From an uncultured Chloroflexia bacterium (GTDB taxonomy: Bacteria > Chloroflexota > Anaerolineae > Anaerolineales > Anaerolineaceae): a DNA stretch of 32,000 nucleotides. The position numbers were made by a program, and so were the translations under genes. Under the pieces are notes generated by a model that saw nothing but the letters and a program-made list of their open reading frames with translations, was not told the DNA's origin and made no database searches. Below are positions 2,964 through 30,934 of this stretch, piece after piece. Within the stretch, counting starts at the first letter, position 1, and each line of letters opens with the position of its first letter. Where the stretch lies: positions 1,440,001 through 1,472,000 of the forward strand of contig OY969938.1 in the NCBI GenBank assembly GCA_963704755.1, in the 5' to 3' direction.

Positions 2964-3016
2964 CCGAATTTGAGAGGTTTGCGGAGGCTTTGCCCCCGCA
3001 AACCTCTCAAATTCGG
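2964..3016. repeat. long palindromic hairpin element, family A (CCGAATTTGAG...CTCAAATTCGG)
   Basis: Checked base by base: 24 pairs with 1 mismatch, 3-nt centre TTT within GGCTTTGCC. Starts 38 nt after the cbiO stop. Confidence 0.9.
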
Positions 3017-3095
3017 TTAATTCTTGCACGGGCCTGAGTAATTACAAGTATTCAATTATTTCCGAAAACGCAGCCGCGCAAGCCGTTCAGGAGAG

Positions 3096-3152
3096 CTGGG
3101 TGTTTTTATTGTTTTTGTGTGCTTCGCACACAAAAACAATAAAAACACCCAG
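3096..3152. repeat. long palindromic hairpin element, family B (GGGTGTTTTTATTGTTTTT...AAAAACAATAAAAACACCC)
   Basis: 27 perfect base pairs, centre TTC within GCTTCGC, followed by TTTCTTTTTT. In tandem with the 2964-3016 element. Confidence 0.9.
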
Positions 3153-3421
3153 TTTCTTTTTTGTAGTTAAGCCTGGCAAATAAGAAGCCTGAGAAGTAAC
3201 TAAAAGTGTAAGGCAATTGAAATTAATTTCGGGGCCGGGTTCTGCTAAAGTAATATAATCACAGGAAGAGTGTTCGTGAGTCCACTGAAAAATTACTCGC
3301 TAAGGGCAAGGTTGACCGATCCTTACCCGTTTGGTTGGGCAGTTATGATTCTTCTCTTTATCAGAAAAACATATTTCAGCGGGGTCATCTGTACTTCCCA
3401 AAATCCAGCAAAGGAAAAGAT

Positions 3422-4459
3422 ATGAAAATTTATATCACGGGGATCAGTGGGTTCCTGAGTATTAACCTTGTGCGCTATCTGCTCCAGCGCGGCTATACCG
3501 ATATTTCTGGGATCGACCTGGTCGATTTTACCTACCCGGAACGCGACCAGATCGAATTCTTCCAGGGCGATATTCGCGACAAGGAAGCAGTGAAAAAGAG
3601 CATGGCCGGCGCGGACGTGATCGTCCACACCGCAGCGGCCTTACCTTTGTACTCCCCAGAAGATATTTACACCACCGATGTCATCGGTGTCCGCAATTTA
3701 CTCGAGCAAGCCCGTGAATACGGCGTCAAGCGCTTCGTCCACATTTCTTCGACCGCCGTGTATGGTGTACCGGATCACCACCCCCTGTTCGAAACGGATG
3801 CCATCAACGGCGTAGGGCCTTATGGCAAAGCAAAAGTGGAGGCCGAAGGCATTTGCGAAAAATTCCGTGAGGAAGGTATGTGCGTGTCCATTTTGCGCCC
3901 CAAGTCCTTTGTTGGGCCGGAACGCCTGGGCGTGTTTGCCATCTTCTACGACTGGGCCTGCCAGGGCAAGAACTTTCCCATGATCGGCTCGGGCAACAAC
4001 CGCTACCAGCTCATGGATGTAGATGATTTTTGCCAGTCGATTCTGGCGTGCCTGACCGGCGACGAAGCCGCCGTCAACGACAACTTCAACGTGGGCGGGG
4101 CCGAATACACCACCATGAAAGAGGATTACCAGGCCGTTTTGGACGAGGCTGGCTTTGGCAAGCGCATTATCCCCTTCCCGGCCGGGCCGGTCATCCTGGT
4201 GCTGAAAGTACTCGAGGCGCTCAACCTCTCCCCGCTCTATCCGTGGATCTACGAAACCGCCGCCAAAGATTCCTTCGTCTCGATCGAAAAAGCTCAAAAA
4301 GTATTGGGGTATAAACCAGAATATTCGAACAAACAGGCGCTGGTGCGCAACTACCGCTGGTACCTGGCCAACAAAGACACTTTTACCGGCGAGGAAGGCG
4401 TCACGCACCGCGTTCCCTGGAAACAAAAGGCCCTGAAAGTCGCCAAGATTTTCTTCTAG
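3422..4459 (+). CDS. NAD-dependent epimerase/dehydratase (extended SDR) family protein
   Basis: ATG 3422 preceded by AAAGGAAAAG. N-terminus MKIYITGISGFLS (Rossmann TGxxGxxG-like), HISSTAVYG, catalytic YGKAK (YxxxK). The upstream part of the track ORF (3335-3421) has no support. Confidence 0.8.
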   Translation: MKIYITGISGFLSINLVRYLLQRGYTDISGIDLVDFTYPERDQIEFFQGDIRDKEAVKKSMAGADVIVHTAAALPLYSPEDIYTTDVIGVRNLLEQAREYGVKRFVHISSTAVYGVPDHHPLFETDAINGVGPYGKAKVEAEGICEKFREEGMCVSILRPKSFVGPERLGVFAIFYDWACQGKNFPMIGSGNNRYQLMDVDDFCQSILACLTGDEAAVNDNFNVGGAEYTTMKEDYQAVLDEAGFGKRIIPFPAGPVILVLKVLEALNLSPLYPWIYETAAKDSFVSIEKAQKVLGYKPEYSNKQALVRNYRWYLANKDTFTGEEGVTHRVPWKQKALKVAKIFF

Positions 4460-4478
4460 AAACAATCGTATACCCGAT

Positions 4479-4549
4479 AAAGATGACCTAAAAAAGAGGT
4501 GTTCGCGGTGACGTTGTCACCGCGAACACCTCTTTTTTAGGTCATCTTT
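4479..4549. repeat. long palindromic hairpin (unique sequence), terminator-like
   Basis: AAAGATGACCTAAAAAAGAGGTGTTCGCGGTGAC / GTCACCGCGAACACCTCTTTTTTAGGTCATCTTT, about a 34-bp stem around a 3-nt centre. Starts 20 nt after the SDR stop. Confidence 0.85.
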
Positions 4550-4581
4550 CTCCATAGCCCGAAACATCAGGAAATTCTATA

Positions 4582-28336: not shown

Positions 28337-28342
28337 AAATTT

Positions 28343-30584
28343 GTGCAGACCACTGAACGCCAATTTTTACCGGGTTCAGGGGATCCGGGACCCATCCCCC
28401 TGGCGCGCTTTCTGCCTCACCTGCCGCCGGGTGTTTTCAGTCGCTGGCTGGCAGAAAACGTCGCAGCGGGCGAATGGCTGCTGGACCCAATCGGTGGGCA
28501 TCCCGGCCTGGCGCTCGAAGCTGCCCGGTCCGGCCAACGGGTACTGGTGGCCAGCAATAACCCCATCCTGACCTTTATGCTGGAGGTCTTGGCCTCCGGT
28601 CCCAAAAAAGAAGATTTCGAAGCCGCCCTGGCGGCCCTGGGAGCCAGCCGGCGGGGTGAAGAGCGCCTGGAGCGCTATCTCAAGTCGATTTACCTTACAC
28701 CCTGCGCTGTCTGCGGCAGGGACGTTCCGGCCGAGGCCTTTCTGTGGCAAAAAGACCAGCCCCAGCCCTTTGCGCGCATCTATCACTGCCCCGCCTGTGG
28801 CGACGAAGGCGAGCGGCCGGTCGTCCAGGCTGACCTGGACAGGTTGAATGCCCTGGGCAGCGATGCCCTGCACCGCTCCCGCGCGCTGGCGCGCGTCGTG
28901 CAGGCCGGCAGCCCGACCGAACAGGTCGAGACCGCCATCAAAACTTACCTGCCGCGCCCGTTGATCGTCCTGACCACCCTGATCAACAAATCCGAGGGCT
29001 TATCGCTCTCGCCCGAACGTAAAGCCCTGCTGACCGCCCTGCTGATCAGCGCCTGCGATGAGGCCAATACGCTCTGGCCGCACGGCTCTTCCCGTCCACG
29101 CCCGCGCCAGTTGACCATCCCCAGCCAGTTTCGTGAGAATAACCTGTGGAAGGCGCTGGAAGACGCCATTTCGCTCTGGCTGGCCAGTTCTACGAAGGTG
29201 CGATTAACCCATTGGCCCGAGCTTCCCCCACCGGGAGGCGGCATCTGCCTGTACACCGGGCGGGTTAAGTCCCTTCTGCCGCTGCCAGAAAATATCCCAA
29301 TCAAAGCCCTGGCGACGATCCTGCCGCGCCCCAACCAGGCCTTCTGGACCCTGTGCGCCTTGTGGTCAGGCTGGCTGTGGGGCCGCGAGGCGGTCCAGCC
29401 GTTGCGCGGTTCGCTGGAGCGGCGCCGCTACGATTGGCACTGGATGACCCACGCCATATCCGGCGCGCTGAGTGGGGTCAACGCCCGGCTCCCGGCCGGC
29501 ACGCCTCTGTTTGCCCTGGCATCCGAATTGATCCCCGGTTTCCTGCTCTCGCTCTTCTGCGGCCCGCTGACGGCCGGCTACCGGCTGGAGAGCCTGGCTT
29601 ACGACGAAAGCCACGACCAGGCCCAGTTCTACTGGCGCTCCGCCCCCACAGCGGCACCGGCCGGCACGTCTAACCCCAAGACGGTCCTTGCACAGGCCTT
29701 CCGCGAGCATCTTTATCGGCGGGGTGAGCCGGCCCCTTACCTGGCCTTGTTCGCCGCCGGGCTGCAAGGCATGGCCGGAGCAAATTTGCTGCCTCAGCAT
29801 GAATCGGGCGTCAACCCGGACCTGCTTGGCCGGCTCCAGGGCACCATGAGTGAGGTCCTGCTGGATAGCAAAGTCTTCGAACGCTTTTCGCCTCACGGCC
29901 AATCCGAAGAGGGCAGCCTGTGGGGGCTAAAGGACTACGGCGAGGCAGTTCAGCCGCTCTCCGACCGGGTCGAAAGGGCCATTGTAAAACTGCTCCTCGA
30001 CCACGATCCACTGACGCTGGAAGAAGTCCACCGCCAGATCGACCAGGATTTTCCCGGCCTGCTGAACTCCTCCCGCGGAACTGGTCGACGCCTGCCTCGA
30101 TTCATACGGCGAGATAGTCCCGGACCTGCCCGGCACCTGGCGCCTGCGCGCGCAAGACACCGTCATCGCCCGCAAACGCGACCTGCGCACGGTGCGCCTT
30201 TTACTCGACCGCCTGGCCGGCACACTCGGTTTTACCTGCCTGGGCGAAGAGGTTTTACACTGGCAAATCGCCGGCCAGCAGCCGGCTTACCTGTTTTTCC
30301 CGGTGGCCTCGGCCATCGTCAGCCGGCATGTCTTTCAACCCCAGCCGCTGCCGCGCTCCCGCTGCGTGCTGGTCATCCCTGGCGGTCGCGCCTCGCTGTT
30401 GAGTTATAAACTGGACCACAACCCGCAGCTCAGCCGGGCGGTCAACCAGGGCTGGCGCATCCTCAAATTCCGCCATCTACGCCAGCTTGCCGAACGCACC
30501 GTGATGGATTTGTCGCTGTGGGACGAGCTGCTGGATGCCGACCCGCCCAGTTGGGACAGCGCCACCCAGATGGCCATGTTGTAG
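28343..30584 (+). pseudogene. large zinc-ribbon protein resembling COG1743-type DNA methyltransferases but with a degenerate catalytic motif, interrupted by one frameshift
   Basis: LLDPIGGHPGLALEAARSGQRVLVASNNPILTFMLEVLASGP resembles motif I of Zn-ribbon N6-adenine methylases (vLDPFaGGGsIPLEA.RLG....a.DLNPVA). CxxC...CPxC ribbon (CAVCGRD..HCPACGDEG). At the expected DPPY position it reads ILPRPNQAFWTLCALWSGWLWG. After ..QIDQDFPGLL the frame turns to Arg/Pro junk. The next frame, open after TGA 30063-30065, continues TPPAELVDACLDSYGEIVPDLPGTWRLRAQD...LLLDRLAGTLGF.. into track ORF 30192-30584. Confidence 0.5.
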
Positions 30585-30616
30585 TAGCGCTTCGCAAATC
30601 CAATGGACTATCGTAA

Positions 30617-30676
30617 AAAGCGATCGGCCCGGTCCCTCCGTACCGTCGGCCGAGGCTGCTCTTCAACCCACGCCTG
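30617..30676 (+). repeat. 60-nt direct repeat, copy 1
   Basis: AAAGCGATCGGCCCGGTCCCTCCGTACCGTCGGCCGAGGCTGCTCTTCAACCCACGCCTG. Internal hairpin TCGGCC-CGGT-[CCCTCCGT]-ACCG-TC-GGCCGA. Confidence 0.85.
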
Positions 30677-30797
30677 TACGGCTCCAAACACCGCGCAAAC
30701 CTGTTGGGTTCCGCTTGCGCCGTAAATGGCCAATGCTATTTAAAGGCCCGCTCAACCCAACCTACACACGACTCCAATAATCAAAAGGAAATTCGCC

Positions 30798-30857
30798 AAA
30801 GCGATCGGCCCGGCCCCTCCGTACCGTCGGCCGAGGCCACTCTTCAACCCACGCCTG
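30798..30857 (+). repeat. 60-nt direct repeat, copy 2 (181 nt downstream of copy 1; 4 mismatches by eye)
   Basis: AAAGCGATCGGCCCGGCCCCTCCGTACCGTCGGCCGAGGCCACTCTTCAACCCACGCCTG, followed by the small hairpin CCCGGCTT-CGA-AAGCCGGG at 30861-30879. Confidence 0.85.
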
Positions 30858-30897
30858 CGACCCGGCTTCGAAAGCCGGGCTACATTCTTAAAGACAG

Positions 30898-30934
30898 AGA
30901 GGAGTTTGTGGTGCTTCGCACCACAAACTCCTCT
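30898..30934. repeat. palindromic hairpin with GCTTCGC centre
   Basis: AGAGGAGTTTGTGGTGC TTC GCACCACAAACTCCTCT, 17 perfect pairs. Lies 7 nt downstream of the PBP stop (minus strand). Confidence 0.85.

Follow-up and report, generated by a model that had tools for sequence, protein, structure and literature searches.

Palindromes in the window

The window, a stretch of 32 kb from an uncultured Anaerolineaceae bacterium (contig OY969938.1, positions 1,440,001 to 1,472,000), carries twelve long palindromes beside genes such as cbiO, rplS, folK and folP. They are named here by the first position of the repeat and are collected in Table 1. At least five of them belong to a 111-bp MITE (for miniature inverted-repeat transposable element), which is the subject of this study. 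The gene context described in the first-pass annotation, made from the letters of the window alone, was essentially correct by Pfam, with three corrections: the left neighbour of palindrome 7644 is a tRNA-Leu gene (7480-7564, minus strand), folP starts at 19541 and not at 19475, and the element around 19428 overlaps the stop codon of folK, an exception to the statement that all elements are intergenic. The relatives of FolP are Bellilinea/Anaerolineaceae proteins with at most 73 % identity, which makes the organism an Anaerolineae (Chloroflexota) that lacks a closely related sequenced genome.

All twelve inverted repeats were recovered at the coordinates reported for them. The reported design, with 3 nt at the centre and 17-34 bp in the stem, applies to the eight perfect palindromes, with stem lengths of 34 bp (4479), 28 bp (15552), 27 bp (3096), 26 bp (6241 and 20407), 23 bp (21894), 22 bp (7644) and 17 bp (30898). 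It does not apply to 19439, a perfect 16-bp stem with a 7-nt loop, nor to the imperfect palindromes 2964, 16297 and 25612, which are 96 %, 83 % and 77 % complementary, respectively. Perfect stems of 12 bp or longer, with a loop of 3-4 nt, number nine in the window, one of them an ordinary 14-bp terminator at 20499, while 100 dinucleotide-preserving shuffles of the window had a mean of 0.0 such stems and a longest stem of 11 bp. The palindromes are thus far in excess of the shuffled window. Contig L001 (2.5 kb) from an independent Logan assembly of this strain, which starts inside one palindrome and ends just past another, has the palindromes 20407 and 21891 base for base, hence these structures are not an assembly artefact. 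Arm sequences are shared within two groups, again in agreement with the earlier description: GGGTGTTTTTATTGTTTTT is common to 3096, 15552 and 20407, and CCGAATTTGAG...CTCAAATTC to 2964, 16297 and 21891. A scan of the whole window with Rfam brought only a tRNA above the gathering threshold and no palindrome family; between 2900 and 4600 the palindromes gave generic microRNA-precursor matches far under threshold.

Table 1 Palindromes of the 32-kb window, with the limits and setting of the element or repeat around them (TIR, terminal inverted repeat; signs in brackets give the strand of the gene)
Position	Feature	Structure	Setting
2935-3045	Full-length 111-bp MITE	Left TIR GTAATTGTTCAG 2935-2946, core 2964-3016, right TIR CTGAGTAATTAC 3034-3045	
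3096-3152	T-rich palindrome (family A)	27-bp perfect stem, TTC loop, then T-run TTTCTTTTTT (3153-3162)	In tandem behind the MITE 2935-3045, downstream of cbiO (+)
4479-4549	Core-type palindrome	34-bp perfect stem; inner part GAGGTGTTCGCGG matches the MITE core	After epimerase gene (+)
6241-6295	Orphan palindrome	26-bp perfect stem, loop TGC	Convergent GyrI-like gene (+, stop 6241) and hypothetical gene (-, stop 6320)
7611-7720	Imperfect palindrome of about 110 nt	Core 7644-7690 with 22-bp perfect stem, loop TTC; 52-nt arms, 75 % complementary	Between divergent tRNA-Leu gene (-) and rplS (+)
15552-15610	T-rich palindrome (family A)	28-bp perfect stem, TTC loop, then CTCTTTTTC	After ROK gene (+), convergent with Imm5-like gene (-)
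16269-16379	MITE copy	Core 16297-16351; right TIR CTGAGCAGTCAC (16368-16379) intact, left TIR decayed (TTCCTTCTTCAG)	Between divergent Imm5-like gene (-) and DUF3090 gene (+)
19402-19509	108-bp MITE	Core 19428-19489	In the last folK codons
20407-20461	T-rich palindrome (family A)	26-bp perfect stem, TTC loop, then CTACTTTTT	5 nt past the folP stop codon
21884-21951	MITE remnant	Core 21891-21946 and inner spacers; both TIRs lost	Downstream of GAF histidine-kinase gene (-)
25612-25663	Imperfect palindrome, 77 %	Core-like ends CCGAATTT...AAATTCAGG	Between DUF2207 gene (-) and NusG-like gene (-)
30887-30945	Palindrome	17-bp perfect stem 30898-30934, loop TTC	Between convergent genes

A 111-bp element with terminal repeats and target-site duplications

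The arm pattern CCGAATTTGAG-N15-45-CTCAAATTC was scanned for in a collection of species-representative genomes and occurred in more than 96 stretches. About 74 of the 96 stretches examined (L003-L098) came from four metagenome-assembled genomes (MAGs) of Anaerolineaceae: DAIQPZ01, JAFGLU01, CAZMMI01 and DATKLX01. A profile of 44 full-length copies from other species, in which no window sequence was included, was run with nhmmer over 498 kb of loci from the four MAGs and matched 110 copies, of which 64 were complete from end to end, with 79 copies in 350 kb of a single MAG; these loci had been picked for holding at least one copy, thus the copy density is overestimated. Four matches to this family in viral contigs lay on one strand only and so lacked the palindrome, as would be expected of chance matches.

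Seen with 100 nt on either side, the element has a uniform layout: a 12-bp TIR GTAACTGCTCAG, 17 nt, the palindromic core, another 17 nt and CTGAGCAGTTAC. The core of about 53 nt has the consensus CCGAATTTGAGGTGTTTGCGGGTGC-TTC/GAA-GCACCCGCAAACACCTCAAATTCGG and ends in CCGAATTT and AAATTCGG. The first-pass annotation had taken the palindrome for the whole element; it is only the core, and the outer 29 nt on each side had been missed. In 47 copies both ends were recognisable by a TIR match of at least 9/12 on both sides, and 43 of these measured 108-113 bp, most commonly 111 bp. The 8 nt on the two flanks of these 47 copies were identical in 19 cases and agreed in 7/8 positions in five and in 6/8 positions in six, while control flanks shifted 8 nt outward most commonly scored 2/8. 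The 19 perfect duplications have a G+C content of 29 % in loci of 53-62 % G+C. The elements have no coding capacity, 111 bp being too short for a gene. Small and non-coding, with TIRs, a target-site duplication of fixed length and many copies, they are MITEs.

The elements lie almost only between genes, in all gene orientations. With rough calls of open reading frames (ORFs) in the MAG loci, 46 copies were found between co-directional, 21 between convergent and 18 between divergent genes, the background gene pairs in the same order being 218, 56 and 61; only three elements fell within ORFs. The two outer spacers are unlike each other (GTGAAAAAGAC-CCG versus GGTGAAAGTTG-CCG), so that each element has an orientation.

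Some copies have cleanly lost the entire core and kept the ends and spacers (L038 695-765, L091 4438-4506 and L019 2480-2545). In L091 the perfect 8-bp duplication (GATTTATA) is still present. These copies show the instability that is expected of palindromes. At one divergent intergenic site the element is present in two species (L028 6272-6382 and L094 6902-7011; flanking orthologues of 52-66 % identity), each copy carrying the variant of the core that is usual in the genome concerned, which points either to independent insertion or to concerted change within the genomes.

Five of the twelve window palindromes were detected by the profile: 2964, 16297, 19428, 21891 and 4479. The matches covered 16277-16379 (E = 1.2e-21, model positions 9-111), 2935-3045 (E = 6e-21, model 1-111), 21884-21951 (E = 6e-13, model 23-90), 19402-19509 (E = 3.3e-8) and, with the core only, 4491-4545 (E = 4.5e-5, model 33-87). 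The window holds ten 12-mers that resemble the TIR, where 1.7 would be expected. The copy at 2935-3045 matches the TIR in 10/12 positions at both ends, is flanked by the duplication AAGTAATC (2927-2934) / AAGTATTC (3046-3053) with 7/8 identical positions, and folds end to end into one hairpin (z about -9 to -10). For the copy at 16269-16379 the flanks agree in 5/8 positions, and another TIR-like 12-mer is present at 16399-16410. In palindrome 4479 the CCGAATTT segment is symmetrically replaced by CCTAAAAAA, which yields an A6-stem-T6 arrangement with the shape of a bidirectional terminator; neither a TIR nor a duplication was found at 4479-4549. The label of a hairpin MITE, one of the two proposed at first pass, is right for at least five elements, given the 111-bp unit, the 12-bp TIRs and the 8-bp duplications.

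The 108-bp copy in folK illustrates an insertion. It is flanked by AACGAAAT (19394-19401) and AACGAAAC (19510-19517), identical in 7/8 positions, and the present stop codon of folK is the TAA of the GTAA end of the element. Removal of 19402-19509 together with one repeat restores the folK ORF, which then ends 13 nt before the folP ATG. For comparison we used five syntenic loci of relatives (87 kb) with the gene order rplS, C26 peptidase, racemase, DUF3090, kinase-like, homoserine dehydrogenase, folK and folP; one of them also has the histidine kinase, the NusG-like gene and DUF2207. There the two fol genes share 4 nt in L002 and L165 and lie 26 nt apart in L163, with neither an insert nor a palindrome at this place in the five loci, though with about 72 % identity in FolP the relatives are too distant for a nucleotide-level alignment of the empty site. 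Throughout the 87 kb no palindrome of at least 16 bp and no profile match was detected. The palindromes are thus not conserved in position, and the excess over chance, the 110 matches in the four MAGs and the lack of any in the five relatives bear out the view of the first-pass annotation that this is a dispersed repeat family and not a set of individually evolved terminators.

A second MITE family (family D, the 111-bp family being family B) was observed in the MAG loci at L056 7200-7370, L064 6760-6940, L017 7180-7360 and L076 2360-2530. It has the ends GGCTCTTTGGGAWTTSCCGTGG with the terminal repeat GGCTCTTTGGGA.... Its duplications, again of 8 bp, read ATATTATT on either flank in L056 and TTATTGAG / TTATAGAG in L064. 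Its design is like that of family B: a long perfect palindrome CCGCATTTTGGGGTGTGAGCGCG... with a loop of 3-4 nt. Family D is absent from the window. Since it has another terminal repeat and the same overall design, several MITE families coexist in this lineage. Homology between the cores of both families was considered and set aside: it is convincing by eye, yet the best match of the family B profile had E = 0.027 and mostly there was none. We claim for the two families only a common design.

Behaviour of the palindromic core

The central 53 nt form a near-perfect palindrome with a 3-nt loop that is kept perfect while the copies diverge. Among 82 cores of 53 nt (75 distinct), 39 were perfect. 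Compared with the consensus, the 82 cores had 198 cells with two-sided Watson-Crick changes and only 80 mismatched cells; a decaying repeat would give the opposite. Among the mismatches, G·T/T·G pairs (21) were no commoner than A·C/C·A pairs (24), which gives no hint that an RNA transcribed from one of the strands is under selection.

The loop reads TTC or GAA independently of the orientation of the outer spacers: the four combinations were seen 7, 7, 6 and 3 times, and in an explicit alignment 6 of 20 copies were discordant. An inversion of three bases is not a point mutation, hence a flip of the loop requires that the arms exchange sequence. In one of several tests tried, on 54 loops from 37 loci, loop orientation followed the local GC skew (r = 0.41, p = 0.002; Fisher test per locus, p = 0.002), GAA tending to the G-rich strand. 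Loop orientation was correlated neither with coding-strand bias nor with the direction in which the neighbouring genes run, the orientation of the outer arms did not correlate with GC skew, and other 3-nt loops, in small numbers, showed no relation to it. Tentatively, loop orientation tracks GC skew. In the window itself the GC skew is negative over nearly the entire length (1-32000), and six TTC loops are all on the plus (C-rich) strand.

A process at the level of DNA may account for the perfection of the core. The core would extrude as a DNA hairpin, and one arm would be copied onto the other, so that it stays self-complementary. Template switching across the hairpin in replication, or recombination or repair between the arms, are candidates for such copying. 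The same process, tied to replication, would sometimes invert the 3-nt loop. On the G-rich strand the apex reads GCGAAGC, which we take to be an unusually stable DNA mini-hairpin. A further step is speculative, and we regard it as rather unlikely: that the core is more than a passive load of the MITE, extrudes in vivo, is continually re-perfected and flipped by replication, and that d(GCGAAGC) settles on the G-rich lagging-strand template.

Candidate transposase

The ends of the element lead to the insertion sequence (IS) family IS66. ISDge4 of Deinococcus geothermalis, a member of the ISBst12 group of this family (a group found also in Geobacillus), has the ends GTGACTACTCAGCA / GTAACTGCTCAGCA and an 8-bp direct repeat, and is autonomous with a single ORF for a transposase of 449 aa (PMC12898284). 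The TIR GTAACTGCTCAG(C) equals the end of ISDge4 in 12/12 bases, or in 13/14 with the commonest next bases, and both elements have an 8-bp direct repeat at the insertion site. With the ends typical of the IS66 family, which begin GTAAGCG and are likewise accompanied by 8-bp repeats (PMC11946415), the MITE has only the first four bases in common. It differs from ISDge4 in being a non-coding unit of 111 bp and in its host, Chloroflexota as opposed to Deinococcota/Bacillota. The ends and the duplication suggest mobilisation in trans by a DDE transposase of the ISBst12 type. Such an enzyme, with its gene at another place in the genome, would attach to the terminal repeats and cut with an 8-bp stagger. 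Unpaired terminal repeats in the MAG loci were decayed or core-deleted MITEs, and no autonomous element was among them. IS copies are usually lost from MAG assemblies.

Elements of comparable build are known from other bacteria. The Correia elements of Neisseria and MITEAba12 of Acinetobacter (PMC6382973) are also small and non-coding, occur in many copies between genes, carry TIRs and duplications, are mobilised in trans and can fold as a whole into a single hairpin; the present family differs from them in its ends, the length of the duplication and the host. In the literature library searched we found no description of MITEs with ends of the ISBst12 type, and nothing relevant on palindromic repeats in Anaerolineae. 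The family is apparently an undescribed member of a well-known class of elements that has spread through several Anaerolineaceae genomes.

T-rich and orphan palindromes

The palindromes 3096, 15552 and 20407 form a T-rich family (family A) with a common 19-nt T-rich arm and the apex GCGTGC-TTC-GCACGC. In all three, read along the upstream gene, the hairpin is followed by a T-run. Palindrome 3096 gave a weak profile match (E = 0.27). In 15552 the right flank up to CAAGTAGTTAT (about 15626-15636) is like the right arm and TIR of the MITE, and 15571-15635 matched model positions 46-110 marginally (E = 0.03). The first-pass conclusion that the palindromes are not terminators stands for the family as a whole; it is not established for these three, which look like working terminators. 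Most likely family A, whose right flank is like the MITE arm, arrived by insertion and now terminates the upstream gene. Palindromes with the same arm, GTTTTTATTGTTTTT, were also seen in unrelated metagenome contigs of low G+C content, at L101 5580-5618, L102 114-152 and L103 754-789 (two in tandem in L103); these are probably chance bidirectional terminators rich in A/T.

For the orphan palindrome 6241 there was no profile match and no relative among the sequences compared. The imperfect palindrome 7611-7720 is bracketed by a 15-nt direct repeat, ACCGTCAAGGAAAGA (7596-7610) / ACCGTCAAGAAAAGA (7721-7735), has ends unlike the MITE TIR and gave no profile match. The repeat copy at 7596-7610 contains the -35 box (TTGACG, minus strand) of the predicted tRNA-Leu promoter. 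In 30898 the stem GAGGAGTTTGTGGTGC resembles, by eye, the inner MITE core minus the CCGAATTT segment, and the outer part AAAGAC..GTGTTTAAG is imperfect. Together with 25612 it looks like a decayed or shortened relative of the MITE. A direct repeat of about 60 nt, AAAGCGATCGGCCCGG.CCCTCCGTACCGTCGGCCGAGGC..CTCTTCAACCCACGCCTG, lies in the spacer upstream of 30898 in two nearly identical copies 181 nt apart (30617-30676 and 30798-30857).

Weighing of the explanations

We consider it likely that the best explanation is a 111-bp MITE with ends of the ISBst12/IS66 type and 8-bp AT-rich duplications, which supplies five of the window cores, would be moved in trans and may have its core re-copied from arm to arm. 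Several observations weigh against this account or parts of it. For seven of the twelve palindromes the profile match was not significant; among these, 25612 and 30898 had no profile match and their likeness to the MITE was seen by eye only. The three known copies of family A all lie within the window, with a left boundary at the palindrome edge and with no duplication found, and the family A pattern had only three matches in metagenomes of the Joint Genome Institute (JGI), on the unrelated contigs L101-L103 with a G+C content of 37-42 %. Neither the window nor 0.55 Mb of MAG loci yielded a transposase gene, and the viral contigs scanned for TTGTAACTGCTCAGC yielded 59 stretches with no IS-like end pair and no transposase ORF. 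The ISBst12 link was drawn from a TIR match to one paper and the length of the duplication. Arm copying is deduced from sequence statistics, and selection for a hairpin on both strands would give two-sided changes with no excess of G·T as well. The skew association comes from 54 loops in 37 loci and from one of several tests; two MAGs and the window show it clearly, in another of the four MAGs it is weak or absent, and to equate GC skew with replication direction is an assumption for this lineage.

The palindromes could be intrinsic, often bidirectional terminators that evolved in place in a lineage favouring long stems, with arms shared through common constraints. Bidirectional terminators are likewise G+C-rich hairpins near stop codons, and nine of the twelve palindromes begin within about 40 nt of a stop codon; a U-run behind the stem, toward the direction of the upstream gene, is present in the three T-rich palindromes, A/T runs are placed alike in 4479, and a consensus scan flagged 7644 and 30898 as terminator-like. 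In contrast to such terminators, the window palindromes form sequence families, are missing in relatives and can be found within an operon and between divergent gene pairs as well. The relatives have short hairpins or none at the same positions (an 11-bp stem with T-run after rplS, a 12-bp stem after folP and a 15-bp stem elsewhere), and the stems of the window are 2-3 times as long as its ordinary terminators (10 bp at 8239, 14 bp at 20499), which agrees with the first-pass annotation, as does the position of 7644 and 16297 between divergent genes. Five of the palindromes are members of a repeat family that has terminal repeats and duplicates its target, one of them between folK and folP, genes which overlap or nearly abut in relatives; in the MAG loci the family is as frequent per divergent as per co-directional gene pair, and the orientation of its outer arms is unrelated to the direction of neighbouring genes (9 versus 8). 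The stem of the MITE core is followed by AAATTCGG and not by a T-run, with CTTTC or CTTTTTC only 2-4 nt past the full stem. Palindrome 20407 precedes a separate ordinary terminator, the 14-bp bidirectional one at 20499-20529. A conserved terminator was rejected on the five syntenic loci, and an origin of the palindromes as terminators in place appears very improbable. Of much greater weight is the possibility that the T-rich family and the orphans 6241 and 7644 are unrelated to the MITE, either as a separate private mobile family or as functional hairpins of the host (terminators, protein sites or replication-related sites), so that the window mixes at least two kinds of palindrome. Their profile matches have E values of 0.03 or worse, the homology of the three T-rich copies begins at the left edge of the palindrome, 7644 has other ends and a flanking repeat of 15 nt and not 8 bp, and family D shows that several MITE families coexist in the lineage. 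On the other side, 3096 and 15552 have TIR-like 12-mers on the right at about the spacing of the MITE (CTGAGAAGTAAC at 3189-3200 for 3096), the apical motif GC-TTC-GC is common to the T-rich palindromes and the MITE cores, 20407 comes as an extra hairpin ahead of an ordinary terminator, and all T-rich and orphan palindromes are missing from the syntenic relatives. We regard this separation as quite possible, if on balance doubtful.

The first-pass annotation had also likened the palindromes to repetitive extragenic palindromic (REP) sequences or bacterial interspersed mosaic elements (BIMEs). In this case the elements would be REPs, or the hairpins of REP pairs (REPINs), spread by a REP-associated tyrosine transposase (RAYT), an HUH enzyme of the IS200/IS605 type acting on single-stranded hairpins. 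REPINs depend on a single-copy HUH enzyme, and compensated changes between the arms have been reported for them. The REP/REPIN elements of Pseudomonas and Enterobacteria resemble the MITE family as intergenic hairpins of high copy number with compensated arm changes, and a loop orientation that follows GC skew would suit a single-strand, replication-coupled mechanism. However, REPINs lack such terminal repeats and target-site duplications, and we know of no target-site duplications from HUH single-strand transposition of the IS200/IS605 type, whereas the 12-bp TIRs and 8-bp duplications found here are the signature of a DDE enzyme that cuts both strands with a stagger. A link to GC skew is seen for the loop alone and not for the outer arms. 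REP/REPIN elements carry a GTAG or CGTC tag (PMC3733652), which is absent here. A phmmer search with the RayT of E. coli as the one query gave nothing at E values up to 10 among 2104 ORFs in 0.55 Mb, about one tenth of the four genomes; for the window, too, the first-pass annotation had noted no transposase or RAYT gene. On the target duplications, the missing tag and the lack of a RayT match the REP/RAYT reading was rejected, and we give it hardly any probability.

Neighbouring genes

Three genes of the window are broken into overlapping ORFs: an HTH-WYL-WCX gene (4615-5602), the GAF histidine kinase (21964-24987) and Rce1/DUF2207 (25664-28266). The latter two are each one uninterrupted ORF, of 1003 and 852 aa, in L163, a syntenic relative. 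The split ORFs reflect either frameshift errors of the assembly or pseudogenes. In the relatives rplS, the C26 peptidase, the racemase and DUF3090 are adjacent; the window has in addition a gene for an FAD-oxidoreductase (8343-9662) and a GH3/ROK/Imm5-like block (12133-16238), the right end of which adjoins the MITE 16269-16379.

Meaning of the element family

Dense long palindromes in this and related Anaerolineaceae genomes should be masked or annotated as cores of mobile elements, and neither as small RNAs nor as terminators. Genes are reshaped by the elements, as one copy provides the stop codon of folK and separates folK from folP. The copies also form a clean data set on the survival of palindromes in bacterial DNA, as they stay perfect while diverging and sometimes have their cores deleted, and the orientation of their loops seems to follow a strand bias related to replication. 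If the extrusion and replication-coupled flipping of the core were true, the elements would preserve, across whole genomes, a natural record of hairpins that form in replication and of one arm being copied onto the other. Family D with other ends and the same design suggests that the hairpin itself could be favoured or reused. Current ideas are not overturned; a known class of elements is extended to a poorly studied phylum.

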